Assembly: GCA_963732945.1 (NCBI GenBank)
Contig: CAVTBL010000017.1
Span: 187,298 to 251,297 of the forward strand
Reading direction: 5' to 3'
Length of the DNA: 64,000 nucleotides
From: an uncultured Chloroflexia bacterium
Lineage (GTDB): Bacteria; Chloroflexota; Dehalococcoidia; DSTF01; WHTK01
Positions 23,259-62,520 of this stretch are shown in pieces (the stretch's first letter is position 1; each line of letters starts with the position of its first letter). The notes under the pieces were generated by a model, which saw only the letters and a program-made list of their open reading frames with translations, made no database searches and was not told the DNA's origin. Both the position numbers and the translations under genes were made by a program.

Positions 23259-23334
23259 GCCAAGGTAGCTCAGTCGGTAGAGCACAGCTCTGAAAAAGCT
23301 GGGGTCGCCGGTTCGAATCCGGCCCTTGGCACCA
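23259..23334 (+). tRNA. tRNA-Phe (anticodon GAA), CCA encoded
   Basis: GCCAAGGTAGCTCAGTCGGTAGAGCACAGCTCTGAAAAAGCTGGGGTCGCCGGTTCGAATCCGGCCCTTGGCACCA folds as a canonical cloverleaf with anticodon loop CTGAAAA. Confidence 0.95.
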
Positions 23335-30773: not shown

Positions 30774-33700
30774 ATGAACGAGATCTTCGGCGTCTCGATG
30801 AACCTGATCATGGTCGTGCTGGTGGTCCTGCTCGCGATCTCGCTGGGCAGCATCGTCTTCGTGGCGCTGAGCAATCGCATCATGTTCAAGATGGGCCTGC
30901 GCAACATCCCGCGGCGCCGCGCCCAGACCACGCTAATCGTGCTCGGCCTCATGCTCAGCACCGTAATCATCTCGGCCGCATTCACTACCGGCGACACCGT
31001 GAACCGCAGCGTCACCAGCGAGGTCTACCGCGTCCTCGGCTCCATGGACGAGGCCGTTGTTGCCGGAACCAACGCCGGCGGCCTTGGCGACGAAGGTGTC
31101 GCCGTTACCAACGAAACACCATATCCGCAGGCGCAGGTCGCGCCTCTCGCCGACCAGCTTTCGAACGACCCGCGCGTCGATGCCGTGATTCCCGCGTTCG
31201 CCAACGTCGCGGTGGCAGTGAACCTGGACCAGAAGCTCAGCTCGCCGGTGTTCAACCTCCTCGGCCTGGACCCGCAAGGCGCCGCCAACCTGAGCGACAT
31301 CAAGCTGGTCAACGGCGGCGTAGTACACGTAACCGACCTGGCGCCGGACGAGTTCTACATCACTCAGAGCGGCGCCGACGACCTCGACGTGAAGACCGGC
31401 GACAGCATCACGTTGTTCACCGGCAAGGCCTCTCAGGTCTTCAAGGTGAAGGGCATCGTCGAAGACAAGCGGCTGGCCGGCGCCGGCGGCGTCTCGACCG
31501 GCCGCTCAGGCGCCGTAGTACCGCTGAGCGTGGCGCAGTCGTTCTTCAGTCAGCCGAACAACATCACAGAGCTCGTCGTCTCGAACAAGGGCGATAGCCG
31601 GGGCGGCCTGAACGACGCACCTGCAGTCGAAAACGAGATCGATACCTGGCTGAGCGCGCACACGACCGGCACACCGCTAACCCAACAGAAGATCAAGACC
31701 GACGGCGTCAAGATCGCCAACTCGGCCGCGAGCATCTTCACGACTTTCTTCCTGGTCCTCGGCCTGTTCTCAATCGGCGCCGGCGTGCTGCTGATCTTCA
31801 TGATCTTCGTGATGCTCGCCGCCGAGCGTAAATCGGAGATGGGCATGGCGCGCGCCGTGGGCACCAAGCGCTTCGACCTGGTGCAGACCTTCCTCTCCGA
31901 AGGCATGGCCTACAACGTGCTCTCGGCGATGGTCGGGACCGCGATCGGCGTGGTTGTCGCCTTCGTAATCAGCAAGGTCATGGCCTCGATCTTCTCGAGC
32001 GCCAACCTCGACATTACGCCCCATGTGACCGTGCGCAGCCTCGTGATCTCGTACTCGCTCGGCGTGGTGCTGACCTTCCTCACCGTGACGTTCTCCTCCT
32101 GGCGCATCAGCCTGATCAACATCGTGCGCGCCATCCGCGACATCCCGGAGCCACCGGCTGAGAAGCCGCACTGGGGCACGCACGGCTTCTTCCCCACCCT
32201 GCGAGACCTCTTCTTCCAGCCGACCGACCGCGGTGGCTGGAAGCGCCGCGGCGTAGCGTTCCTGGCGTTCGTCCTGGCAGCGTTCGGAGCCAAGGCTCTG
32301 CCGCTGCTCCTCATCGGCGTCTTGCTGCTCGCCGCGACGCTGTTCAGCTATGTCTGGGTGCAGAAGCAAATGCCGATCGTGATGCGCGTCGGCGCCTGGC
32401 TCGGCATGATGCTGGTGCTACCGGCCACGCTGGCGATCGCGTTCTTCCGTACCTTCCAGCTCGGGCCGCTGCTGCTCGGCGTCGGGCTCGCGGTGCTCGG
32501 CATCTTCGTCGGGACGAACTCGCACTCGTCCTTCCTGCTGCTGTTCGGGCTCTCGCTGTCGCCGCTGGGACTGGCGCTGATCCTGCGCTCGTTCGGCGCC
32601 AACGAGCGCCTGAGCTATACGCTGCTCGCCCTCTACCTGATCTACATCTGGGAGCTCGACTTCAGCGTTGGTCTGATCGAGAAGGTTTTCGGCAAGACCA
32701 ACGGCGGCATCGAGATGTTCTTCCTCAGCGGCGTTATGGTGACGCTGGCCGCGACCTTCCTCGTCGTCTACAACTCCGACCTGATCCTCGGGCCGATCAC
32801 GAGGCTGGGTAGCGGGCTCGGGGCGCTGCTGCCGTCGATCAAGATGGCGGTCGCCTACCCGCTAGCTAACAAGATGCGCACCGGCATGACGATGGCGATG
32901 TTCTGTCTCGTGATCTTCGCGCTCACCGTCATGTCTTCAATGAACTACAACTTCGACCGGCTGTTCCTCAGCGACCGCGCTCTCGGCGGCTGGGACGTCT
33001 CGGTCGACGAGAACCCGACGAGCCCGATCGGCGACCTCCAGGCCAAGCTGCAGGCGGCGAACTCACCCGCGGCCAACGACATCGAGGCTGTCGGTGTGGC
33101 GGAGATCAAGACGCGGCGCAACTCCTACCTGTGCCAGGTGACGCCGGAGACGCCGTGCGACCCCAACGGCAACCTGGACACTAGCTTCACCAAGTACCTG
33201 ACGGACGGCGTCGACCAGTCGTTTATCACCAACAACGGCATCACGTTCCAGGCCCGCGCCGCCGGCTACAACAGCGACAAGGACGTCTGGCAGGCCATGG
33301 CGAACGACCCGACGCTGGCGGTGGTCGATGCCAATGCGCTTGCCGGCAACGGCGGCTTCGGCTCCGGTACCTTCATCAGCGGAATCGCCGCGGATGCAAC
33401 CAGCTTCCAGCCGATAACGATCCGCATCGTCGACGCCACGACGCACGCTACAGCCGATGTCAAAGTCATCGGCATCATCGAGATGGGCGCCAGCGCTAAC
33501 TACATCGGCCTCGAGGTCCAGCCGTCCGTGTTCAACAGCGTGTTCGGCACGCCGGACGCGCGGCGCTTCTACGTCAAGACGAAGCCCGGCACCGACAATG
33601 TCGAGGCCGCGCGCCAGATCGAGGCGTCGCTGCTAACGACCGGCGCCCAGGCCGACTCGCTGAAGAAGGTGCTGCAGGACCAGACCTCGACCTTCAACGC

Positions 33701-34100
33701 CTTCTTCTACCTGATGCAGGGCTTCATGGGCCTCGGTCTGTTCGTCGGCGTCGCCGCGGTTGGCGTTATCGCCTTCCGCACCGTCGTAGAGCGCCGGCAG
33801 CAGATCGGCATGCTGAGAGCCATCGGCTACACGCGCAACATGATCGGCCTGACGTTCCTGATCGAGTCGGCGTTCATCGCCTTCATGGGGGTGGTCAGCG
33901 GCATCCTGTTCGCTCTGATCCTGGCGCGACAGCTAATCACGACTCAGTTCGCCAACCAGGGTGTCACGAGCTTCGCCATACCGTGGCCGCAGGTGCTGTT
34001 AATTGCAGGGCTGGCGTTTGGCTTCGCGCTGATCATGACGGTGATCCCGTCTCGTCAGGCCGCGCGCATCCCGATCGCCGAAGCCCTGCGCTACGAATGA
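30774..34100 (+). CDS. Very large FtsX/MacB-type ABC permease with two FtsX modules (1108 aa)
   Basis: Two copies of the FtsX C-terminal signature (ERKSEMGMARAVGTKRFDL... and ERRQQIGMLRAIGYTRNMI...), each preceded by a large extracytoplasmic domain, with extra TM helices in between. Confidence 0.85.
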   Translation: MNEIFGVSMNLIMVVLVVLLAISLGSIVFVALSNRIMFKMGLRNIPRRRAQTTLIVLGLMLSTVIISAAFTTGDTVNRSVTSEVYRVLGSMDEAVVAGTNAGGLGDEGVAVTNETPYPQAQVAPLADQLSNDPRVDAVIPAFANVAVAVNLDQKLSSPVFNLLGLDPQGAANLSDIKLVNGGVVHVTDLAPDEFYITQSGADDLDVKTGDSITLFTGKASQVFKVKGIVEDKRLAGAGGVSTGRSGAVVPLSVAQSFFSQPNNITELVVSNKGDSRGGLNDAPAVENEIDTWLSAHTTGTPLTQQKIKTDGVKIANSAASIFTTFFLVLGLFSIGAGVLLIFMIFVMLAAERKSEMGMARAVGTKRFDLVQTFLSEGMAYNVLSAMVGTAIGVVVAFVISKVMASIFSSANLDITPHVTVRSLVISYSLGVVLTFLTVTFSSWRISLINIVRAIRDIPEPPAEKPHWGTHGFFPTLRDLFFQPTDRGGWKRRGVAFLAFVLAAFGAKALPLLLIGVLLLAATLFSYVWVQKQMPIVMRVGAWLGMMLVLPATLAIAFFRTFQLGPLLLGVGLAVLGIFVGTNSHSSFLLLFGLSLSPLGLALILRSFGANERLSYTLLALYLIYIWELDFSVGLIEKVFGKTNGGIEMFFLSGVMVTLAATFLVVYNSDLILGPITRLGSGLGALLPSIKMAVAYPLANKMRTGMTMAMFCLVIFALTVMSSMNYNFDRLFLSDRALGGWDVSVDENPTSPIGDLQAKLQAANSPAANDIEAVGVAEIKTRRNSYLCQVTPETPCDPNGNLDTSFTKYLTDGVDQSFITNNGITFQARAAGYNSDKDVWQAMANDPTLAVVDANALAGNGGFGSGTFISGIAADATSFQPITIRIVDATTHATADVKVIGIIEMGASANYIGLEVQPSVFNSVFGTPDARRFYVKTKPGTDNVEAARQIEASLLTTGAQADSLKKVLQDQTSTFNAFFYLMQGFMGLGLFVGVAAVGVIAFRTVVERRQQIGMLRAIGYTRNMIGLTFLIESAFIAFMGVVSGILFALILARQLITTQFANQGVTSFAIPWPQVLLIAGLAFGFALIMTVIPSRQAARIPIAEALRYE

Positions 34101-35388: not shown

Positions 35389-35464
35389 TGGCGCGCTGAG
35401 TGGGACTCGAACCCACGGCCTCAGCCTCCGCAGGGCTGCGCTCTATCCGCTGAGCTACCAGCGC
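35389..35464 (-). tRNA. tRNA-Arg (anticodon GCG as read), CCA encoded
   Basis: GCGCTGGTAGCTCAGCGGATAGAGCGCAGCCCTGCGGAGGCTGAGGCCGTGGGTTCGAGTCCCACTCAGCGCGCCA. Anticodon stem CAGCC/GGCTG, loop CTGCGGA. Confidence 0.9.
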
Positions 35465-35469
35465 ATCAA

Positions 35470-35557
<88 letters not shown>

Positions 35558-39160: not shown

Positions 39161-39236
39161 GTGGTGGGCGATACAGGACTTGAACCTGTGACCTCTTCCG
39201 TGTGAAGGAAGCGCTCTGCCAGCTGAGCTAATCGCC
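39161..39236 (-). tRNA. tRNA-Val (anticodon CAC), CCA encoded
   Basis: GGGCGATTAGCTCAGCTGGCAGAGCGCTTCCTTCACACGGAAGAGGTCACAGGTTCAAGTCCTGTATCGCCCACCA. Loop TTCACAC. Confidence 0.95.
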
Positions 39237-39393
39237 CCGAAAGCTTTGTGCCCGTCAATTGTACACGCAGCATCCGGCTTGCCGGAATCTGGTCCGGAGG
39301 CTATCCCATCCTGACTGGACGAGAGCGCGCACACGATAGACGAAAGGAATATGATTAGAGCCTTGACGACGTGACCAAGGGAGGAGCAGGCGC

Positions 39394-42084: not shown

Positions 42085-42143
42085 AGCCGTTGGCGATTAG
42101 CAGTTGGCCATTAGCCAGAAGCCAACAGCCAATCGCCAACAGC
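42085..42143. repeat. Inverted repeat with (TTGGCNN)n / (NNGCCAA)n arms between convergent genes
   Basis: cgttggcgattagcagttggccattagc / cagaagccaacagccaatcgccaacagc. Same family as 35245-35337. Confidence 0.6.
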
Positions 42144-43303
42144 TACTTGCTGTAGAAGCCCCACGCTGCCTGCGACAGCGCCTTGATCACCGACGTCTCG
42201 TGGTCCGTGTCCGAGAGCGCTACAAACAGATACGGGCCCCTGGGGCCGTAGACGATGCCGACGTCGTGGGTGGCGTCGGACCAGTTGCCGGTCTTGTGCG
42301 CCACCAGCGTTCCGACCGGCACGCCGTCGACGAGGCCGTTGTCGATGCCCTCGCGCGACATGAGCCACAGCATCTCGGCGCTCGCGGGTGGGCTGATCGC
42401 CTGGCCGCGGCCGATCGCCTCCAGCAACAGCGAAACGTCGGACGCGGTGAGCGGCAGTCCGTCTTCGAATAAACCGCTGTCGCGCACGCCCAGCGCGTCG
42501 ATGGCGCGGTTCACGTTGCCGGAGCCCACGAGGTCCTGCAGCAGCACGGCCGCGGCGTTGTCCGAGATCGAGAGCATCGCGTCCATCGTGTCGGCTACCG
42601 TGAGCTGCTGGCACAGCTGGGTGCGCCGCGGCGACAGGGCGAAGGCGTCGTAGTACGGCGTCACGACCAGCTCGTCGTTCCACTTGATCAGGCCCAGCGA
42701 CTCCTGGTGGAACACCTCGTACATCACCCAGAGCTTGAACACACTGGCGGAGTTGAACACCTTGTCGGCGTTGTGCGTCGCGCCGACTCCGGTCGTCAGG
42801 TCCTTGACCACGTAGGCGTAGTCGCCCGACTCGTCGCCCAGCGCGTCGTCGAGCGCCTTCTGCAGCCCGGCGTCCTCGCTGAACGCGATCGGTTTGTACG
42901 GCTGCGGCTCGTCGGCGTCGTCGACCGTGTTCGAAGTGATACGGCCGGTATCGTCGTCACTGCCGTCGAGGCAGGCATCGGAAAACCCGACGGGACCCGG
43001 GATCAGATCGATGAGGCCCGTAGTGCCGGACGGAGCCTTGAACGGCGACGGCGCCACGGTAACTCGCGGACGCGGTGTCGGCGTCGGCGTAGCGCCGGGC
43101 GATGCCGTTCGCAGCGGCTCGACCTTCACACCCTGAGTTGGCGAACTCGTCAGCGTCGGCGTCGACCGCGGCTCGTCCGGAACGTCGGTGCAGGCGCCGA
43201 GCAGCAGCGCCGCGAGCGGCACGAACACCGCGAAACGCAGGAGCCTGGAGAGCACAAGCTGCCCCTCACCCGCCGGCTCGACTGTATCGCAGGCCCGTCT
43301 CAT
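42143..43303 (-). CDS. Class A beta-lactamase-related serine hydrolase, membrane/lipid-anchored with Pro/Thr-rich linker
   Basis: SxxK (SVFK), SDN (ISDNAAA) and KTG (HKTGNW) motifs. N-terminal TM followed by a Cys. Confidence 0.75.
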   Translation of the reverse strand: MRRACDTVEPAGEGQLVLSRLLRFAVFVPLAALLLGACTDVPDEPRSTPTLTSSPTQGVKVEPLRTASPGATPTPTPRPRVTVAPSPFKAPSGTTGLIDLIPGPVGFSDACLDGSDDDTGRITSNTVDDADEPQPYKPIAFSEDAGLQKALDDALGDESGDYAYVVKDLTTGVGATHNADKVFNSASVFKLWVMYEVFHQESLGLIKWNDELVVTPYYDAFALSPRRTQLCQQLTVADTMDAMLSISDNAAAVLLQDLVGSGNVNRAIDALGVRDSGLFEDGLPLTASDVSLLLEAIGRGQAISPPASAEMLWLMSREGIDNGLVDGVPVGTLVAHKTGNWSDATHDVGIVYGPRGPYLFVALSDTDHETSVIKALSQAAWGFYSK

Positions 43304-43401: not shown

Positions 43402-44928
43402 TTACGCCACGCTGCTCGACTCGATCTGCTTCATGTGGTGCGAGATCGAGAGGTCGCGCAGCTGGTGCTTCAGCCAGTCACTCGTCTGGTGCGCCGCGAT
43501 CGCGTCGCGCAGAGCTGCGGCGCGCCGCTGACGCTCCTTGCACGGCATCGCCAGCGCCTTCTCCAGCGTCTCGGCCGTGTCGACGATGTCGAACGGGTTG
43601 ACCGGCAGCGCGCCGAAGCGCAGCTCGTCGTACGCGCCGGCCGTGACCGACAGCGCCAGCACGCCATCGACCTCGTTGAGCACCGGCCCCTCCTTGGCGA
43701 CGAGGTTCATCCCGTCGGCGACGGAGTTGACCAGCAAGACGTCGTACAGAGTCAGACCGGCCAGCGCCTGCACGCGGTTATGCTCATGGAATACCTGGAT
43801 CGGCGTCCAGTCTGGCGTGCCGTACTTGTGGTTGATCGCGTCGACCAGGTTGAAGACGCGCCGCTTGTAGCCCGCGTACTCCTCGATGCCGCCTCGCGAC
43901 GGTACGAGGAACGCAAGGAAGCGCACGTGGCCACGCAGACGCGGGTCGCGCTGCAGCAGCAGGTCGAAGGCCTCGAAGCCGTCGGCGATGTTCTTGCTCG
44001 GGTCGAGCCGGTCGACGCGCACGATCGTCTTCATGTCTTCGGGCGCTTCGAGCGCCAGGCGGTACTGCTCCAGCGTCGGCTGGGCGCGCAGCGAGGTCAG
44101 CTCCGAGCTGTCGAGCGAGACCGGATTGGACCATACGAACGTCGTCTGACCCAGGTACTCGACCTCGCCCTGTCGCTCGAGCACCCTGGCGCGGTCGCCC
44201 AGGTAGGCGCGGCAGGTCGCCAGGAAACCGGCAACCGAGGCCTCGGTCTGGAAGACGATGCTGTCGTTGGCCAGCAGGCCGGCGCAGATGCGGCGCACCA
44301 GCGTATCGGGCAGCTGGCTCCAGGCGGTCGGGCCCGGCCAGGGGATATGCACGAAGTGCTGTAGCGCGGCGCGAGGCTTGGCGGCGCGGATCAGGCGTGG
44401 CGCCAGGTAGAGGTGGTAGTCGTGCAGCATGACCTGGGTGTCGCTGCCGTCGCCGTCGATCTCGTCCGCGACCGCGTCGGCGAACGCCTGGTTGATCGGC
44501 ACGTAACCATCGTGCCAGGAATCGAGCGCCAGCGTCGAAAGGTCGCGCGAGGTCAGCAGGTGCCCAATCGAGTGCTGGACGAACCAGAGGATCGGGTTGC
44601 AGAACGATTCGTAGTAAGTCTGGTAGGCCTTTTCGTCCAGGTGGACGAGGCGAAGATCGCTGTCGCGTCCGATTTGAGATCGCTGGCCAAGAATGGCGAC
44701 CGTCTTGTCGGCTTCGCTGCCGGCCGAGGCGATCCAGGTAACGGGTTGCTGTCGTGCGACGCTCGCAAGCGCCGTCGCTACGCCGCCAGCCGCGTCGCGC
44801 CGGCGGATTCGTCCAGAGTCGTCGAATATGTGCTCGATGGGCCCGCGGTTGCTGACCATGACCAGCTTCCGGGGCTTGGTGCCGTAGGGCCTCGAGGGAC
44901 TATGGGCGGGTGTTACCTGGGCTAGCAT
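43402..44928 (-). CDS. GT20 family glycosyltransferase, trehalose-6-phosphate synthase-like
   Basis: VMVSNRGP ... GGVATAL ... LHDYHLYLAP ... VNSVADGMNLVAKE. Start moved to the ATG at 44928 (GGAGGAG ribosome-binding site), because the track's TTG at 45012 lies in the terminator tail of the riboswitch. Confidence 0.8.
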   Translation of the reverse strand: MLAQVTPAHSPSRPYGTKPRKLVMVSNRGPIEHIFDDSGRIRRRDAAGGVATALASVARQQPVTWIASAGSEADKTVAILGQRSQIGRDSDLRLVHLDEKAYQTYYESFCNPILWFVQHSIGHLLTSRDLSTLALDSWHDGYVPINQAFADAVADEIDGDGSDTQVMLHDYHLYLAPRLIRAAKPRAALQHFVHIPWPGPTAWSQLPDTLVRRICAGLLANDSIVFQTEASVAGFLATCRAYLGDRARVLERQGEVEYLGQTTFVWSNPVSLDSSELTSLRAQPTLEQYRLALEAPEDMKTIVRVDRLDPSKNIADGFEAFDLLLQRDPRLRGHVRFLAFLVPSRGGIEEYAGYKRRVFNLVDAINHKYGTPDWTPIQVFHEHNRVQALAGLTLYDVLLVNSVADGMNLVAKEGPVLNEVDGVLALSVTAGAYDELRFGALPVNPFDIVDTAETLEKALAMPCKERQRRAAALRDAIAAHQTSDWLKHQLRDLSISHHMKQIESSSVA

Positions 44929-45018
44929 TGCTCCTCCGAGTTCTGGCATCCGTGCCCCGGATACCTCGGGAGGAGGGTTCGGCTGGCGTTGGAGAGACTG
45001 CTCCGGCTGCAAAGCAAG

Positions 45019-45053
45019 GAGGAAAAGAAACAGCCGGAGGATGCCCCCGGCTG
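45019..45053 (-). terminator. Riboswitch expression-platform terminator
   Basis: Minus strand CAGCCGGGGG-CAU-CCUCCGGCUG (10 bp including one G-U) followed by UUUCUUUUCC. Confidence 0.7.
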
Positions 45054-45061
45054 TCAGCCGA

Positions 45062-45202
45062 AACCCATCCTCTTTCAGTGGCCTACGAGGTTAGCTGACG
45101 GGTTAGGGCTGAAAGAGCCTGCCCTGTTCTCGTGTGAGAACTACACCCCGAAAAGTGGGTCCCCCGTTCTCCCTCAGCGGAAGGAGACTCGGCCTTAGGT
45201 AC
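45062..45202 (-). promoter_or_regulatory. ydaO-yuaA type c-di-AMP riboswitch aptamer
   Basis: Minus-strand blocks are in the canonical order: ACGGGGGACCCA (45156-45167), CGGGGUG (45144-45150), ACCCGUCAGCUAACCUCGUAGGC (45081-45103), GAAAGAGGAUGGG (45064-45076). These match the conserved cores of the B. subtilis ydaO and T. tengcongensis c-di-AMP riboswitches as I remember them. Confidence 0.8.
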
Positions 45203-45389
45203 AACCCTATGTTACGGACGCCGGCAAAGGCTGTCCAGTAGGGCTACATAACAAACACATTAAAAGCACCGGCACGTTTTCAGGTCGTTTCTGGAAACGA
45301 TTTGTGACTTTTCTAGACTCGATTTGACGGCACTAGAATTTGGCGGTCAGAATAGGCATGAATTTGAAAGCGTAGGCAGGATTCATGAG

Positions 45390-45743
45390 ATGAGAATTAG
45401 CAAGAACTGGAACCTGATGGCCACACACGGCGTTGTGCTGTTCTACATCGCCGCCAACCCCGACTCGACGATGCGGCAAATGGCCGAGTCGTTGAACCTG
45501 ACGGAGCGCCGCATCGCCCAGGTCGTGCGCGACCTCTCGGACGCGGGGCTGCTGTCGGTAACGCGCAACGGCCGCCGCAACGCCTACTCGGTGAACCCGG
45601 AGGCCAGCTTCCGCCACCCGACGCTGTCGCACATCACCCTGGGGCGCTTCGTCCAGGTGCTGAGCACCCTGCCGCTGGCAGTCGGCGCCCTCCTGATCGG
45701 GCTGAGCCGCTGCCTGGAGCCGGCGAGCCAGTTTCTGACCTAG
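45390..45743 (+). CDS. Winged helix-turn-helix (MarR/ArsR-like) transcriptional regulator with a C-terminal hydrophobic segment
   Basis: STMRQMAESLNLTERRIAQVVRDLSDAGLLSVTRNGRRNAY. The start codon is uncertain (45390 or 45417). Confidence 0.65.
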   Translation: MRISKNWNLMATHGVVLFYIAANPDSTMRQMAESLNLTERRIAQVVRDLSDAGLLSVTRNGRRNAYSVNPEASFRHPTLSHITLGRFVQVLSTLPLAVGALLIGLSRCLEPASQFLT

Positions 45744-47609: not shown

Positions 47610-49754
<2,145 letters not shown>

Positions 49755-49903
49755 TGTAAGGTGAGTAATCCTACGCGCCAGCGATCGGGGCGCGCTCTCG
49801 TATCTCGCGACACCTTGCACCACGTTCTCCATCAAATCGCAGAGCAATTGGCACGCAGGAATGGCCAAATTACCTGTCCATAACGACAGTTCGGCGCTTT
49901 AGA

Positions 49904-51307
49904 ATGACTAATGTGAACGGATACTCCCGTATCGTGCTTGTTTCCAACCGCCTTCCCGTGACCCTGCACATGCAGGGTCACGAGATGAAGCTCGAGCAGT
50001 CCGGCGGCGGTCTCGCGACCGGTCTGCGCAGCGGACGCTGGCGCGAGGGCAGCATCTGGATCGGCTGGCCCGGCGAGTCGCCGCCCGAGAACATGCGCCC
50101 CGAGCTGGAGCGTCAGCTGGCGGAGCTCGGCACGCAGGCCGTTTACCTGACGCGCGCCGAGCAAAAGGGCTTCTACGAGGACTTCTCCAACGGCGTGATC
50201 TGGCCCGTGTTCCACGATCTCATCGATCAGCTGCCGCTGCTGCTCGAGGGCTGGTCGGCCTACCAGCATGTCAACGAGAAGTTCGCGCGGGCGATTGCCG
50301 ACGCATATCAGCCCGGCGACCTGATCTGGATCCACGATTACCACCTCATGCTCGTGCCGGCGATGGTCAAGGCGCTGGTGCCCAAGGCGCGCATCGGCTT
50401 CTTCCTGCACATCCCATTTCCGGCGCACGAGGTGTTTCGCGTCATACCGGAGCGACGCGAGCTCATGGAAGGCGTCCTCGGCGCCGATCTCATCGGTTTC
50501 CACACGCAGACCTTCGCCGATAACTTCGCAGCCTCGGCCGCCAACGTGCTCGGTCTTCGACCCAGCGGCTCCACCCTGAAGGTCGAGCGCCGCAACGTAC
50601 ACATGGGCGTCTTCCCCATGGGCGTCGACGCGAGCGCGTGGGAAGCGCGCAGCCGCACGACCAAAGTCGCGAAGCAGGTCCTGTCGCTGATCCAGGACGC
50701 GGGGCGGCGCAAGATCCTCGTCGGCATCGACCGTCTCGATTACACGAAAGGCCTGCTGCGCCGCACCGCCGCGATCGAGCGTCTGTTGCACGAGGACCCG
50801 GCGCTGGCCGAACGCGTGCGCTTCATCCAGATCGTCTACCCGTCACGGGAGCGCATCGAGTCTTACGCCGGGCTGCGGCGTCAGCTGAACGAGGTCGTAG
50901 GGCGGCTCAACGCGAACTACGGCAGCGCCCGCTCTCTTCCCGTGCACCTGATCAACCGCTCGTTCTCCGAAGACGAGGTCTCGGCGCTGTACTCGGCCGC
51001 AGACATCATGCTCGTGACGCCGATTCGCGACGGCATGAACCTCGTCGCGAAGGAGTTCATCGCCTCGCGTCTGCACGGCGATGGCGTCCTCGTGCTCAGT
51101 GAGTTCGCCGGCGCCGCCGACGAGCTCACGGAAGCGCTGCTGGTCAACCCGTACGACACCGAAGGCACGGCCGCGACCATCCGCCGCGCCATCGAGATGC
51201 CGCCGGAGGAGCAGCGCGAGCGCATGACCAGCCTGCGCGCCAAGGTCATGGCCAATGACGTGCACCAGTGGTCACAGAACTTCCTCGATGCGCTAAGCGC
51301 GTGCTAG
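49904..51307 (+). CDS. otsA: Alpha,alpha-trehalose-phosphate synthase (GT20)
   Basis: LVSNRLPV ... GGLATGL ... WIHDYHLMLVP ... TPIRDGMNLVAKEF. Canonical OtsA length. Confidence 0.85.
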   Translation: MTNVNGYSRIVLVSNRLPVTLHMQGHEMKLEQSGGGLATGLRSGRWREGSIWIGWPGESPPENMRPELERQLAELGTQAVYLTRAEQKGFYEDFSNGVIWPVFHDLIDQLPLLLEGWSAYQHVNEKFARAIADAYQPGDLIWIHDYHLMLVPAMVKALVPKARIGFFLHIPFPAHEVFRVIPERRELMEGVLGADLIGFHTQTFADNFAASAANVLGLRPSGSTLKVERRNVHMGVFPMGVDASAWEARSRTTKVAKQVLSLIQDAGRRKILVGIDRLDYTKGLLRRTAAIERLLHEDPALAERVRFIQIVYPSRERIESYAGLRRQLNEVVGRLNANYGSARSLPVHLINRSFSEDEVSALYSAADIMLVTPIRDGMNLVAKEFIASRLHGDGVLVLSEFAGAADELTEALLVNPYDTEGTAATIRRAIEMPPEEQRERMTSLRAKVMANDVHQWSQNFLDALSAC

Positions 51308-57215: not shown

Positions 57216-57247
57216 CCTTCGGCCCGTGTTTGTCCGTTGACGCTACG

Positions 57248-60200
57248 CTACTCGTAGCGCAAGGCGTCGGCGACGGGCACTCGCGCGGCCTGGCGGCTCG
57301 GGAACCAGGTCATGAACATCGACACCACGAACGACACCCCGGCGATTAGCAGGATCTCGACCCACGGAATCGCGAACTGGATGTCGTCGCCGCTGAACTG
57401 ACCGCTCGTGAACAGGTTGTGCGCGATGATCATGCCCCCGACCACGCCCGACAGGATGCCCATCAGGGCGATGAAGCCCGACTCGAGCACGAAGGTCATC
57501 GCCACGGTACCGGTCTGGTAGCCGATGGCCCGCAGCATACCGATCTGCTGCCTGCGCTCGACCACCGACCGGTAAGCGATGACGCCCAGCGCCGCGATGC
57601 CGGTCAGCAGGCCCAGCGCCATGAAGCCCTGGAACATGCGGATGAACGAGTTGTTCTCGGCAACAGCATCGTTCAACAGCACGCGGACCGACTCCGCCTG
57701 CACGCCCTGCGTCACCAGCGCGGCCTCGATGTCCTTCGCGGCCTGCTTGGCCTTGACGCCGCCGTTTAGCTTCACGAAGGTGCGCAGCAGTGACGGCTGG
57801 CCGAAGACCCGCTCGTACGCCGAAGCCGGGACGTAGACGCCGGCCGTGTACGACTGGTCGACCTGAATCGCGAGCACGCCGATCACGGTGACGCGCGCCT
57901 CGCGGTGGGTCATCGTGTCCGTGTACTCGATGTCGAAGGGCTGGAAGCGGTCGTTCTTCACGTTGAGGCCCTTGACCTGGAAATCGTAGTCGTTGAAACC
58001 GGACGGCAGCACGCTCGGGTCGACCAGCGCGTATTGCGTACCGTTCTGCACCGCGTCGAACACGGCGCGCTCGCTGTCGAAGCCGTCGGCCCAGGCCTGT
58101 AGCCTTGCGTCCTTCATCGAGAAGAAGCCTTCGTTGGCCGCTAGTACAGGGAAGGCCTTGTAGTCGCCACCGGCGACACGGACCTGCGAAGTGCCGTTGA
58201 AGGTCGAGACCCCACCTGTTGCCGCGATGTCGTTGGCGACCGGCGCGTTCGCTTGCTGGCAGCGCCGCCAGCACGTCGGTCGTCGCGGTATTGCGGTTGG
58301 CCGTTGCGATGACGTCCCAGCCGCCGTCGCCGTCGGCGCCGGTGAGGATGGAGACAAAGCTGCTGTTGATGGCGCTGAACGTGGCCAGCGAGAACACGAT
58401 CAGCGAGAACATGGCGATCGTCATGCCGGTGCGGAAGCGGTTCGAGAGCGGGTAGGCGACGCCCATCTTGAGGGCAGGCGCCATCGAAGGGAAACGCACC
58501 GCCGCGAACGCCGCCACAGCGCCGATGGCGATCACGCCGCCGAACAGGTAGAGCAACTGGCCGAGGCCGTCGGCGCTGTCGCCCAGGACCACGCCGCCAA
58601 CCAGGCAGGCGACGGTTGCGAGCGTCAGGACGGCCGTGAAGCCGTAGCGAGGCCCGTTGCCGCGCTGGAAGAACGCGGTCAGCAGCTTCGCATTGAACAC
58701 GATGAGCAGCGTGAACGCGATCACGACCATGACGCCGGAGATAACGAACATCTCGATATCGCCGCTGAGGTGCTTACCGAGGATGAGCTTCGGGTAGTCG
58801 ACCGGTGCCAGCCAGTACGCCGCCAGGTAGGCGCCGACCAGTGACCAGGTCAGGCGACCGGGTGCGCGGTAGTGCGCCGCGAGCAGCGCCACGCTAAGAG
58901 GCAGGATCGAGACGCCGAACGAGAACAGGAACTCGGAGTCGCCGGAGTTGGCTGCCATGATGGACAGGCCGCCCAGTGCGATACCCAGGGGCGCGAAGAT
59001 CCACGCCCATGAGATACCGAGGCCCTTGCGAAAGAAGAACCACACGCCCAGCGGCGGTACGACCATCGCCGGGAGGCCGGCCAGCATCCAGCGCCACGAG
59101 ACCTTGCGGCGCGCAGGACGGCTGTCGTCCTCGTCGGTGCCGCGAATCGCCGCGACGATGTTCACGGAGCTGACCTGGATCGAGGAGAAGACGACGGTGA
59201 GGAACGTAACCACGACGCCGAGGCAGTAGCTGATCACCAACGACCGCAAGGTGACGTGCGCGTGGATGAAGTCGTAGCCGCCGGCGATCTTGAGGTAGCC
59301 CGACACCAGCCCGACCGCGGCCGCGACGCCGAACGCCGCGCCCACAGCCCCGGCGATGATGCTGTACGCCGTGCCTTCGGCCAGGAACGCCTGAACCAGG
59401 CTGCTACGCTGGGCACCGACGGCGCGAGCCATGCCCATCTCTGGCTTACGTTCGGCCGCCAGCATCACGAAGATCATGAAGATCAGCATGATGCCGGCGG
59501 CGATGGAGAACAGGCCGAGGACCAGGAAGAATGTCGTGAACAGGTTGCCGTTCTCCTCCGCGGTCTTCACGGAGTCGGCCTTGGTCTTGTCGAGACTGAT
59601 CGGGCCTTCGACGCCCAGCAGCGCGCGACCCTCGTCGCTCTGCAGGAACGGCTCGAGGCGGCTGATCGCGGCGTCAGACCGCGTGTAGCTGGTCGCGACG
59701 CTGCCTTTGAGCGCGACGCTGAGGAAGTCGAGTTGCCCCTTGTGGCCGGTCAACGCCTGGACGCTGGACAGCAGCATCGCGCCGCCGCCGGACGTCTTCA
59801 CGTCGAAAGCTCCGACGCTGCCCGAAGCCAGCTCGTCCTGGACGACGCCGATGACCCTAACCTCGGTCGAAGCGCCGGCGACGTAGACCGTGAGCACGTC
59901 GCCGGTCTTCGCGTCGAGCTTCTCGGCGGCACTTTTGCTCAGGTAGATGTCAGACTGACCGAGCTTCGACAGGTCGGCCTGACCGCCGCCGACCAGTCGC
60001 AGGCCGCCGAGCTCGCCGAGGCGCTGCGGGTCAATGCCCGAGAGCGTTATCGAGGGCTCGGACTGCTTGCTACTCTGGTCGACAGCGCCGACCGGCTCCT
60101 GCAGCAGCGGGATGAAGCCCGCGATGTCGGCGTCGTTGGCGAAGCGCTGCTCGAGGGCAGGCGTGATGCCGTCGTTGAAGTAGATCGGCGTGTCGCTGTG

Positions 60201-60509
60201 CACCGCGTCCTCGCCGACAAGGTTGAGCGTGAGGTCGGAGCGCTGAAGCTGGTCGTAGCCGACGCGGCTGATCGAGTAGTCGACCGTGTCGCCGGTGGTG
60301 AAGGCAGCCGTCGTAATCAGGGTCGCGAGCATGAGGCCGACGATGACGAGGCCGGTCTGCAGGCCGCGACGCGGAATGTTGCGCAGGCCCATGCGGAACA
60401 TGTGGCCGCTGGTTACATAAATGACGCCCACACTGGCGATAGCGACGGCGAACAGCGCCACCAGCACCAGCATGATCGTGTCCATCGGGATGCCGAATAG
60501 CTTTTCCAT
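57248..60509 (-). pseudogene. Very large FtsX/MacB-type ABC permease (paralog of 30774-34100); frame interrupted by one extra nucleotide near 58255-58262
   Basis: The first ~750 aa are in one frame. The last ~335 aa (QQANAPVANDIAATGG...ERRQQIGMLRAIGYQTG...AARVPVADALRYE) are in the +1 frame and align with the paralog's LQAANSPAANDIEAVG... Span is 3n+1. The in-frame continuation is Arg-rich nonsense. Confidence 0.8.
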
Positions 60510-61252
60510 TACCGCGACTCCTCATTCGTGACCAGACCGTCGTTCATGGTGATGAGACGGTGGCAGCGCCGGCCGATGCCGGGGTCGTGCGTGACGATGA
60601 CGAAGGTCTGACCCTTCTCGGCGTTGAGCTCCTCCATGAGCAACATGATTTCGTTGGCGGTGCGGGAGTCGAGCGCGCCCGTGGGCTCGTCGGCCCAGAC
60701 GATTGCCGGGTCGTTGACCAGGGCGCGGGCGATGGTGACGCGCTGGCGCTGGCCGCCCGAGAGCTGCGAAGGACGGTTGAACGCCCGGTCGGCGAGGTTG
60801 ACACGCTGCAGGGCCTGCATCGCCAGCTCGCGCGCCTGCTTCGCGTTGACACCCGAGACAACCAGGGGTAGCTCGACGTTCTCGACGGCCGAGAGCACCG
60901 GCAGCAGGTTGTAGGTCTGGAAGATGAAGCCCATGTTGTGCGCCCGGTAGGACGTCTTCTGCTTGTCGCTCAGCGACGCCAGGCTGACGCCGTCGATACT
61001 GACGCTGCCGCTATCGAAGCCGTCGAGGCCGCTGATGCAGTTGAGCAGCGTCGTCTTGCCGCAGCCGGACGGGCCCATGATTGCGACCATCTCGCCCGGC
61101 TGGACCTGCAACGACACGCCCTTGAGCGCTCTCACCTGCACGTCGCCGCTCGCGTAGGTCTTCACCACGTCGTCGACGTCGATGATTGCTCGCGGCGCGA
61201 GCTCTTGTTGAATGACTCCTCGCTGTTCGGGTATGGCCCAGGCTACCTGCAT
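60509..61252 (-). CDS. ABC transporter ATP-binding protein (MacB/LolD-like), paralog of 30014-30763
   Basis: [34 protein letters not shown] ribosome-binding site. TAATG overlap with the permease start. Confidence 0.85.
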
Positions 61253-61857: not shown

Positions 61858-62520
61858 TTGGCGGAGGCGAGATTGGCGATACGCATCCTCATTGCCGATG
61901 ACCACAGCGTCGTGCGCCAGGGCCTGCGCATGTTCCTCGGCCTCGACCCCGAGCTCGAGATCGTCGGCGAGGCCGCGGACGGCGCCGAGGCCGTGAAGCT
62001 GTGTCGTGAGCTGAGTCCGGACGTCGTGCTCATGGACATGCTCATGCCAGTGATGGACGGCATCGCGGCCACGCAGGCGATCCGCGGCGAGATGCCCGAT
62101 ACCGAGGTCATCGCCCTGACCAGCGTGCTCGAAGACGGCGCCGTGATCGGCGCGGTCAAGGCGGGTGCGATCGGTTATCTGCTAAAGGACACGCAGGCCG
62201 ACGACCTGCGCCGCGCGATCAAAGCCGCAGCCGCGGGTCAGGTTCAGCTCTCGCCCGCCGCCGCCGCCCGCCTGATGCGCGAGGTGCGCACGCCGGAGCC
62301 CGCGACGCCGCAGCTGCTCACCGAGCGCGAGAACGACGTGTTGAAGCTACTGGCCCAGGGCAAGGCAAACAAAGAGATCGCATTCGAGCTCGTGATCGGC
62401 GAGAAGACGGTGAAGACGCACGTCAGCAACATTCTGCTCAAGCTCGGCGTGCAGAGCCGCACGCAGGCAGCGCTGTACGCGGCGCAGAACGGCCTCGCCG
62501 AGCTCTCGACCTCGAGCTGA
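61858..62520 (+). CDS. NarL/LuxR family response regulator (REC + HTH_LuxR)
   Basis: ILIADDHSVVRQGL, VLMDMLMPVMDG, LTERENDVLKLLAQGKANKEIAFELVIGEKTVKTHVSNILLKLG. Confidence 0.85.
   Translation: MAEARLAIRILIADDHSVVRQGLRMFLGLDPELEIVGEAADGAEAVKLCRELSPDVVLMDMLMPVMDGIAATQAIRGEMPDTEVIALTSVLEDGAVIGAVKAGAIGYLLKDTQADDLRRAIKAAAAGQVQLSPAAAARLMREVRTPEPATPQLLTERENDVLKLLAQGKANKEIAFELVIGEKTVKTHVSNILLKLGVQSRTQAALYAAQNGLAELSTSS

Follow-up and report, generated by a model that had tools for sequence, protein, structure and literature searches.

Known c-di-AMP riboswitches and the Chloroflexota locus

Among the known switches closest to the one considered here are the ydaO (kimA) and ktrAB riboswitches of Bacillus subtilis, which respond to cyclic di-AMP (c-di-AMP). 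We analysed a related element in a 64,000-nucleotide (nt) stretch of DNA from an uncultured Chloroflexota bacterium (assembly GCA_963732945.1, contig CAVTBL010000017.1, positions 187,298 to 251,297; hereafter the window), where a predicted class-I c-di-AMP riboswitch precedes GT20-A, a gene for a glycosyltransferase of family GT20 related to OtsA (trehalose-6-phosphate synthase). The element shares with its B. subtilis counterparts the RF00379 aptamer class, the conserved cores and the pseudoknot, an apparent OFF-switch design with an intrinsic terminator directly 3' of the aptamer, and a likely osmotic and K+ regulon. Unlike them, it stands in front of a gene for a cytoplasmic biosynthetic enzyme instead of a K+ uptake transporter, it occurs in the Chloroflexota, and its leader has about 100 nt of extra conserved sequence in which an anti-Shine-Dalgarno (anti-SD) element can pair with the Shine-Dalgarno (SD) sequence.

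Two further groups of described switches are informative. In Dehalobacter sp. CF, a c-di-AMP OFF switch acting by termination controls ablA, a gene for compatible-solute biosynthesis (White et al. 2022, PMC9337991), and its anti-terminator uses nucleotides of the aptamer 3' end and the pseudoknot, as we propose for the window. There, however, the c-di-AMP aptamer is part of a tandem Na+-I / c-di-AMP riboswitch, whereas the window has a single aptamer, a predicted target in trehalose synthesis, and a tail that would pair with the loop and right shoulder of the terminator. The ydaO-like riboswitches on rpfA and nlpC in Streptomyces and Corynebacterium are of the same class and come from high-GC Gram-positive-type lineages; the rpfA switch works by termination and the nlpC switch is suspected of control at the SD level (PMC9960051). 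Those switches target cell-wall hydrolases, while the one in the window targets solute synthesis. As for the protein, GT20-A belongs with Streptomyces venezuelae OtsA (PDB 5LQD) to the subfamily that holds the Actinomycetota and Chloroflexota homologues recovered here; in contrast to GT20-A, S. venezuelae OtsA has no known riboswitch, and none was found in any Actinomycetota locus surveyed.

The analysis below indicates that the leader of about 275 nt on the monocistronic GT20-A mRNA very probably contains a class-I c-di-AMP riboswitch that works as a termination OFF switch.

Aptamer, promoter and leader layout

Coordinates are positions in the window, and minus-strand elements are given 5' to 3' in descending numbers. 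The elements up to the terminator are:

45237-45209, minus strand: promoter found by a consensus scan, with -35 box TGGACA (45237-45232), a 17-nt spacer and -10 box TAACAT (45214-45209)
45204-45065, minus strand: c-di-AMP (ydaO-type) aptamer, 92.9 bits with RF00379 and 139.7 bits with our own covariance model R1
45077-45070, minus strand: pseudoknot 3' strand UGAAAGAG, whose partner is the loop CUCUUUCA (45117-45110)
45072-45066, minus strand: tail GAGGAUG, proposed 5' strand of the anti-terminator, pairing with CAUCCUC at 45043-45037
45055-45021, minus strand: putative intrinsic terminator (hairpin scan and recurrence), with stem 45055-45029, loop CAU and U-tract UCUUUUCC at 45028-45021

The Rfam model RF00379 (c-di-AMP, ydaO/yuaA) matches 45204-45065 on the minus strand over its whole length (model positions 1-134 of 134) with 92.9 bits and an E value of 1.4e-20, against a gathering score of 38 bits. 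It is the sole riboswitch match in the window, the remaining Rfam matches being all tRNA. A permissive Rfam rescan of 44880-45400 yielded noise and no other RNA family, and on the same scan the idea of another RNA element 3' of the terminator was rejected. With RF00379 and our own model alike, the window leader holds one aptamer only, with no tandem arrangement. Inspection of the sequence finds the ydaO cores ACGGGGGACCCA, GGGGUG, ACCCGUCAGCUAACCUCGUAGGC and GAAAGAGGA in this order.

An alignment of 20 aptamers (the window and 19 genome loci) was folded with RNAalifold, to which the loop-to-tail pseudoknot was added. RNAalifold reproduces the Rfam-type fold. With the pseudoknot included, 96.6% of the cells are paired, and 17 of 37 pairs have compensatory changes on both sides, a level of covariation that was matched by none of 500 column shuffles. 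Sliding the partners by 1-3 columns as a control lowers pairing to 38-57%. The covariation lies mostly in the variable hairpins, the core helices being invariant or nearly so: 11 of the 13 pairs in helices 1, 3 and 4 never vary and are therefore uninformative in this respect. The pseudoknot CUCUUUCA/UGAAAGAG (helix 7) is 96.9% paired, with three of its eight pairs changed on both sides, and 41 alignment columns, including all the conserved cores, are invariant. Judged by these alignments, the element has the aptamer, the covarying fold and the pseudoknot of a class-I c-di-AMP riboswitch.

Upstream of the aptamer, the TGGACA box, a TAnnnT -10 box and the GTACC that follows it are kept in 9 related loci, the sequence pattern of a conserved sigma-70-like promoter. 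Its position puts the transcription start near 45202, from which the leader length of about 275 nt follows. On the 3' side of the aptamer come the 12-base-pair (bp) hairpin, UCUUUUCC, about 90 nt more of leader, GGAGGAG at 44937-44931 and the ATG at 44928.

A putative transcription-termination switch

The stem of the terminator has 12 bp, eight of them GC pairs, and a predicted stability of -21.1 kcal/mol. Of the 20 leaders, 17 have a GC-rich hairpin that starts 25-31 nt past the P1 3' strand and has five or more U among the next 8 nt. In the other three (L009, L038 and L041) no such hairpin was found, which suggests that some lineages may use purely translational control.

The tail GAGGAUG shares its GAG with the pseudoknot strand and is complementary to the loop and 3' arm of the terminator. 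Tail and terminator segments differ among lineages, the pair being GAGGAUG/CAUCCUC in the window, AGGUCAUAG/CUAUGGCCU in L010, GACGUAGC/GCUAUGUC in L012 and GAGGCUAAGC/GCUUAAGCCUC in L024. In the 12 leaders of the clade to which the window belongs, this helix is 92.4% paired, with no pair changed on both sides. In a comparison of nine lineage representatives, tails bind the terminator of their own leader more stably than those of other leaders (-13.3 kcal/mol for cognate and -10.2 for non-cognate duplexes; permutation p 1.5e-4), which counts as moderate support since the lineages are not fully independent. Because of the greater stability of the cognate duplexes and the pairing kept in the clade, we take the tail to be the 5' strand of an anti-terminator, and a transcription-termination OFF switch is the most likely mechanism.

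A high level of c-di-AMP marks a cell that is not in osmotic distress, so that an OFF switch would raise trehalose synthesis as c-di-AMP falls. In the proposed mechanism, binding of two ligand molecules at high c-di-AMP would leave the aptamer locked, and with it the pseudoknot strand UGAAAGAG. With the pseudoknot locked, the tail GAGGAUG could not pair with CAUCCUC, the 12-bp terminator would form, and transcription would halt at 45028-45021. When c-di-AMP drops, as on osmotic upshift or K+ shortage, the free tail would pair with the loop and 3' arm of the terminator, the polymerase would read through and the synthase would be made; trehalose-6-phosphate would rise and be turned into trehalose via an OtsB encoded elsewhere. 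The c-di-AMP signal would thus probably shut off trehalose synthesis directly. The idea that a ligand-locked UGAAAGAG blocks invasion by the tail has an experimental precedent in the c-di-AMP riboswitch of Dehalobacter (PMC9337991), where the same principle was demonstrated.

Much of this layout had been proposed in an earlier, sequence-only reading of the locus. That reading saw the ydaO cores in the right order, and all of them are at the place it gave; it named as its tests recognition by the covariance model, which scores 92.9 bits against the threshold of 38, and pairings backed by covariation, which the 20 homologous leaders provide, pseudoknot included. Its strong hairpin with a U-tract corresponds to the 12-bp hairpin at 45055-45029 and the UCUUUUCC that follows; its GGAGGAG ribosome-binding site is at 44937-44931, its leader of some 270 nt comes to about 275 nt, and the OFF-switch layout recurs in 17 of the 20 leaders. 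The interval that it marked, 45019-45202, covers the aptamer and the terminator and leaves out conserved leader elements at 45022-44931.

The post-terminator leader

In the sub-clade of the window (12 leaders), 90-200 nt separate the terminator from the start codon. The elements of this region in the window, with the linker that precedes the terminator, are:

45066-45055, minus strand: linker GGGUUUCGGCUG, 5' strand of a long-range helix, pairing with 44985-44975
45022-45013, minus strand: CCUCCUUGCU block directly 3' of the U-tract, from the alignments
45010-45003, minus strand: GCAGCCGG, second copy of the terminator 5' arm, predicted to pair with the terminator 3' arm in read-through RNA
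44985-44965, minus strand: CAGCCGAACCC, the partner of the linker, then the anti-SD CCCUCCUCCCGAG, from alignments and folds
44940-44931, minus strand: SD region CUCGGAGGAG, complementary to the anti-SD

The second copy of the terminator 5' arm reads (A/G)CAGCCGG in the clade. Its helix with the terminator 3' arm is 98.8% paired and has two compensated pairs, a result reached by 2 of 500 shuffles, and the post-terminator hairpin is used in the minimum-free-energy (MFE) folds of the full-length leaders of L002-L005 and L007. A third CAGCCG, then AACCC, is conserved in the sub-clade leaders, and so is the anti-SD CCUCCUCC. In 12 of 12 leaders the CCUCCUUGCU block is near-invariant and its last 8 nt are invariant, also where the proteins share 55% identity. 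It is anti-SD-like, the second such element of the leader, and stands outside the proposed model.

The linker GGGNUUCGG forms duplexes of -17 to -33 kcal/mol with CCGAAN'CCC in the 12 leaders. This long-range helix appears in MFE folds and is compensated in three leaders (U:A in L085, A:U in L086, C:G in L091). When the pseudoknot strand is withheld from folds of the full-length leader, mimicking the bound state, the SD has an unpaired probability of 0-0.21. When the tail is free, the long-range helix is lengthened by GAGGA and reaches into the anti-SD; the unpaired probability is then 0.01-0.64, with a rise in six of seven leaders. This shift in SD accessibility suggests that the ligand also represses translation of the read-through mRNA.

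A second, more tentative layer of control may then be sketched. In read-through RNA, the tail plus linker GAGGAUGGGUUUCGGCUG would pair with CAGCCGAACCCUCCUC, which would free the SD from the anti-SD and allow translation; in the ligand-bound state, the pseudoknot would retain the tail's GAG and the anti-SD would sequester GGAGGAG. On such a two-layer reading, the 18-nt tail-plus-linker segment would act as pseudoknot strand, anti-terminator and anti-anti-SD, and, if the reading is true, one ligand-binding event would set both termination and the translation of the read-through mRNA.

The riboswitch-linked gene and its paralogue

The window encodes two GT20 proteins about 5 kb apart, one of which is under the riboswitch:

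44928-43402, minus strand: GT20-A, predicted divergent OtsA-type trehalose-6-phosphate synthase, 508 amino acids (aa), from Pfam, PDB, residues and orthologue neighbours
43371-43331, minus strand: 18-bp perfect GC-rich hairpin without a U-tract, 31 nt past the GT20-A stop, from a fold of the spacer
49904-51307, plus strand: GT20-B, canonical-type OtsA, 467 aa (Pfam 468.5 bits, TIGR02400 527 bits, PRK14501 619 bits)

GT20-A has a full-length GT20 domain (PF00982, 339.6 bits, profile positions 2-471 of 473). Its closest solved relative is 5LQD, the OtsA of S. venezuelae, which it matches over the full length with 246.5 bits (E 4e-72); the same PDB search gave 157 bits for Escherichia coli OtsA and 152 bits for VldE. 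Residues R9, G22, Y76, D130, H154, R262, K267, D361 and E369 of E. coli OtsA (literature numbering; the alignment counts one higher), its catalytic, donor-binding and glucose-6-phosphate-binding set, are invariant in the alignment, and R300 is conserved in GT20-A. The model for glucosylglycerol-phosphate synthase, GgpS (TIGR02398), gives 174 bits, short of its cut-off of 569 bits. All the riboswitch-linked orthologues that were compared (four other loci) share the NCBIfam score profile of GT20-A, which makes them one divergent subfamily. GT20-A is thus predicted to be a divergent trehalose-6-phosphate synthase of the S. venezuelae type. The Streptomyces OtsA uses GDP-glucose for trehalose-6-phosphate synthesis (PMC10117811).

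GT20-B is 31% identical to GT20-A. Its best PDB matches are the fungal and mycobacterial Tps1/OtsA proteins (354-364 bits), and the Rfam scan of the window placed no riboswitch at its gene, which is syntenic in L002, L003 and L007. It resembles the canonical UDP-glucose OtsA/Tps1 and is divergent from a gene for GlgX (47610-49868, minus strand). A canonical OtsA that has no riboswitch suggests that GT20-A is a stress-inducible isoenzyme beside a housekeeping GT20-B.

The hairpin after the GT20-A stop may, on the strength of its predicted fold, be a 3'-end stabiliser or a factor-dependent terminator of a monocistronic transcript. Beyond it lies a gene (42143-43303, minus strand) for a 386-aa protein with a class-A-beta-lactamase fold (serine-hydrolase-like) and a 160-aa N-terminal region. 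It was considered as an operon member and rejected, being syntenic only in L083 and L088 and separated from GT20-A by the strong hairpin.

Distribution and operon context

A protein-based search of species-representative genomes gave 80 loci (labels such as L001 denote the homologous loci of this study). The nearest are from Chloroflexota, mostly labelled Dehalococcoidia, and the farther ones include Actinomycetota. A full-length sense-strand RF00379 match (52-107 bits) lies 5' of the GT20 homologue in 19 of the 80. When the other 61 genome loci were searched with our own covariance model, built from the 20 aptamers, no additional copy turned up; the model gave 14 matches in 12 of 80 metagenome loci. 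The pairing of aptamer and orthologous GT20 gene is found in 31 further Chloroflexota loci (19 genome and 12 metagenome).

In a neighbour-joining tree of 150 homologues, rooted on GT20-B, the riboswitch-bearing GT20 genes form one cluster; five more riboswitch loci, with protein matches too short for the purpose, were omitted from the tree. Counting the window, 27 of the 35 members of the cluster whose upstream sequence is long enough carry the aptamer, against none of about 100 homologues outside it, which come from other Dehalococcoidia, SAR202, Solirubrobacterales and other Actinomycetota. With the aptamer confined to one cluster, the association is lineage-specific; it persists among proteins that share as little as about 45% identity.

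The operons that begin with the riboswitch in orthologous loci have the order otsB-otsA, otsA-otsB or otsA-glgE-treS. The gene for OtsB (Trehalose_PPase) lies between riboswitch and GT20 gene in L041, L023, L025, L100 and L102, directly downstream of the GT20 gene in L010, L011 and L089, and just upstream of the riboswitch in L139; as a same-strand neighbour it occurs in the clade in L010, L011, L023, L025, L029, L041, L089, L100, L102 and L139. The riboswitch-led operon of L024 (3114-8903) runs from GT20 to the maltosyltransferase GlgE and a TreS-like protein of the alpha-amylase family, and its gene content ties predicted c-di-AMP control to the pathway from trehalose to alpha-glucan (GlgE). 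L038 (2149-5269), one of the leaders without a terminator-like hairpin, has a GFO/IDH/MocA-family oxidoreductase gene, not otsB, between the riboswitch and GT20.

Repeated copies occur in two cases. Within 820 nt of L091 (1205-2021), and all on the same strand, lie three full-length c-di-AMP aptamers, 5' of the GT20 gene; no other locus has several. After the first come a decayed leader and an open reading frame (ORF) of 7 codons, an ORF of 37-66 aa with a CxxC motif stands directly after the second, and the third has the platform of the window type. A triple tandem sensor was rejected here: the starts of the aptamers are 315-345 nt apart, the gaps from end to start are 164-197 nt, and small ORFs or a decayed gene start lie between them. 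From its sequence, the arrangement looks as if riboswitch units had been duplicated in series, and not like a single cooperative sensor. For comparison, 77 c-di-AMP riboswitch doublets have been reported, with no mention of triplets (Sherlock et al. 2022). In the metagenome-assembled genome CAVXOY01 (MFD00709.bin.2.102), a module of tRNA, riboswitch, otsB and GT20 stands on three contigs (L025, L029 and L061). The aptamer of L029 is degraded (52 bits), and otsB looks truncated or frameshifted in L029 and L061. The threefold module could be a real duplication with decay or a strain mixture in the bin.

The sequence-only reading asked whether orthologous GT20 genes carry the same leader, and in the 31 further loci they do. 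Its trehalose-phosphate-synthase-like GT20 gene is indeed a full-length GT20 gene, and proves to be the divergent one of two paralogues in the window. To that reading, the association did not look like a standard one. A full-text search returned no paper tying a c-di-AMP riboswitch to trehalose, otsA, GT20 or Chloroflexota, although a listing in the catalogues of Nelson 2013 or Block 2010 is possible. Nevertheless, a passage in a review (PMC7288161, citing Barrick 2004 and Block 2010) names "synthesis and transport of osmoprotectants" among the functions associated with ydaO, and in vitro tests exist of a c-di-AMP OFF switch that governs ablA, a gene of osmolyte biosynthesis (PMC9337991). Going by that passage and the ablA switch, the association is less unusual than had been thought. 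The RNA class, OFF-switch termination and the osmotic regulon are already well known; the trehalose gene is the new target.

Possible promoter-level control and other genes of the window

Divergent from the riboswitch promoter is a gene for a possible co-regulator:

45390-45743, plus strand: small MarR/ArsR-type winged-helix regulator, 117 aa, from Pfam and NCBIfam

It keeps its position at 73-84% identity in L001-L003, L007, L081, L083, L085 and L086, and in most of these eight relatives it is better conserved than the GT20 protein itself; a role as promoter-level co-regulator is possible. Between this gene and the riboswitch promoter lies a perfect palindrome, TCGTTTC-TG-GAAACGA (45285-45300). 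As a conserved operator its exact form was rejected, for it is not kept in relatives, where only a loose TTYCWGAAA core recurs. This TTYCWGAAA-like core may serve as an operator, adding control at the promoter to that by the riboswitch.

Elsewhere, the window encodes two large FtsX-domain permeases, of 1108 aa (30774-34100, plus strand) and 1088 aa (57243-60509, minus strand). The second adjoins an ATP-binding-cassette (ABC) ATPase (60509-61252, minus strand), which would make a MacB/LolCDE-like exporter. A LuxR/GerE-type response regulator is encoded at 61858-62520. There are four tRNA genes (35392-35555 and 39165-39237 on the minus strand, 23259-23331 on the plus strand), two of which are in tandem, 8 nt apart; one of these two has a long variable arm.

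Alternative explanations

Several observations weigh against a termination switch on trehalose synthesis. On the RNA side, the U-tract of the terminator is interrupted (UCUUUUCC). The terminator has no covariation signal in the 12-leader clade, being 79.9% paired as aligned, a low value due in part to the register in which L004, L005 and L091 are aligned; what speaks for the terminator is that it recurs in 17 of 20 leaders. The anti-terminator would have only 7 bp and about -11.5 kcal/mol, vs -21 for the terminator, and the tail duplex does not differ significantly from those of shuffled tails (mean z -0.6). No diadenylate cyclase was found among the window genes scanned, which lie beyond its first 24 kb. 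On the protein side, GT20-A falls below the OtsA equivalog cut-offs (309 vs 565 bits for TIGR02400, 330 vs 634 for PRK14501), a tblastn search with three OtsB proteins from related loci found no otsB in the window, and with a canonical OtsA nearby GT20-A could have a different donor or acceptor. As for the translational layer, the thermodynamic folds model neither the pseudoknot nor the ligand, and in L004 the SD accessibility is unchanged between the two fold states. For these two reasons, we give repression of translation by the ligand, which is a result of modelling, about an even chance or slightly less. The fullest version of our proposal, in which c-di-AMP directly gates trehalose synthesis through a dedicated OtsA paralogue, with a two-layer platform in the window sub-clade and the canonical OtsA riboswitch-free, is offered tentatively, its odds being somewhat worse than even.

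Among other explanations, the one that survives best keeps the RNA mechanism and changes the output: the switch would serve carbon storage or dormancy (alpha-glucan by TreS-GlgE, desiccation), with c-di-AMP reporting on the energy or envelope state. The continuation of the L024 operon into GlgE and a TreS-like enzyme fits this, as do the window's GlgX gene, which lies 3 kb upstream and is syntenic in L001 and L083, and the soils and sediments that make up many of the source samples. The documented role of c-di-AMP riboswitch regulons, however, is osmotic, and we consider a storage or dormancy output unlikely, if well worth keeping in mind.

Control might also be mainly translational, or act via RNA stability, with the hairpin at 45055-45029 being structural and c-di-AMP setting access to the SD. 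In favour of this are the interrupted U-tract, the even better pairing of the terminator 3' arm with the downstream copy of the 5' arm (98.8%), the conserved anti-SD and long-range helix, and L009, L038 and L041, which are without any terminator. Yet a hairpin and U-rich stretch at a fixed distance from the aptamer occur in 17 of 20 leaders, while the post-terminator leaders are unrelated across lineages, and characterised c-di-AMP riboswitches act by termination (PMC9337991). Mainly translational control is improbable on this evidence, and termination remains the preferred mechanism.

A slightly smaller chance still goes to a neofunctionalised GT20-A that is not a trehalose-6-phosphate synthase and makes some other glycosylated solute or intermediate, for instance with another sugar-phosphate acceptor, a product of the glucosylglycerol-phosphate type or a VldE-like pseudo-glycosyltransfer. 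Its scores under the OtsA equivalog thresholds, the canonical GT20-B 5 kb away, the lack of an adjacent otsB in the window and the 152-bit match to VldE all agree with such a change. It is harder to reconcile with subfamily members of 50-54% identity whose riboswitch-led operons include Trehalose_PPase, or GlgE plus a TreS-like protein, with the invariant catalytic residues and those that bind the phosphate of glucose-6-phosphate, with a GgpS score far lower than that for OtsA (174 vs 309 bits), or with a top solved relative that is a proven OtsA. Finally, an aptamer that has decayed or switched its ligand, and no longer answers to c-di-AMP, is scarcely credible given a full-model match at more than twice the gathering score, 41 invariant columns that include all the conserved cores, and evident purifying selection on pairing.

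Biological significance

The understanding of the riboswitch class itself is unchanged by this locus. What the termination switch proposed here would add is a direct, protein-independent link from an essential second messenger, c-di-AMP, to the synthesis of trehalose, a widespread stress-protective sugar; the links drawn for c-di-AMP until now have mostly been with the transport of K+ and osmolytes and with enzymes of the cell wall. The leader may also offer, in compact natural form, a case of termination and SD sequestration coupled to one aptamer. For the divergent OtsA subfamily, the association gives a functional hint that its members may be stress-inducible isoenzymes beside a housekeeping one. 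The link is found in the Chloroflexota; this phylum is for the most part uncultured, and next to nothing is known of its regulatory biology.

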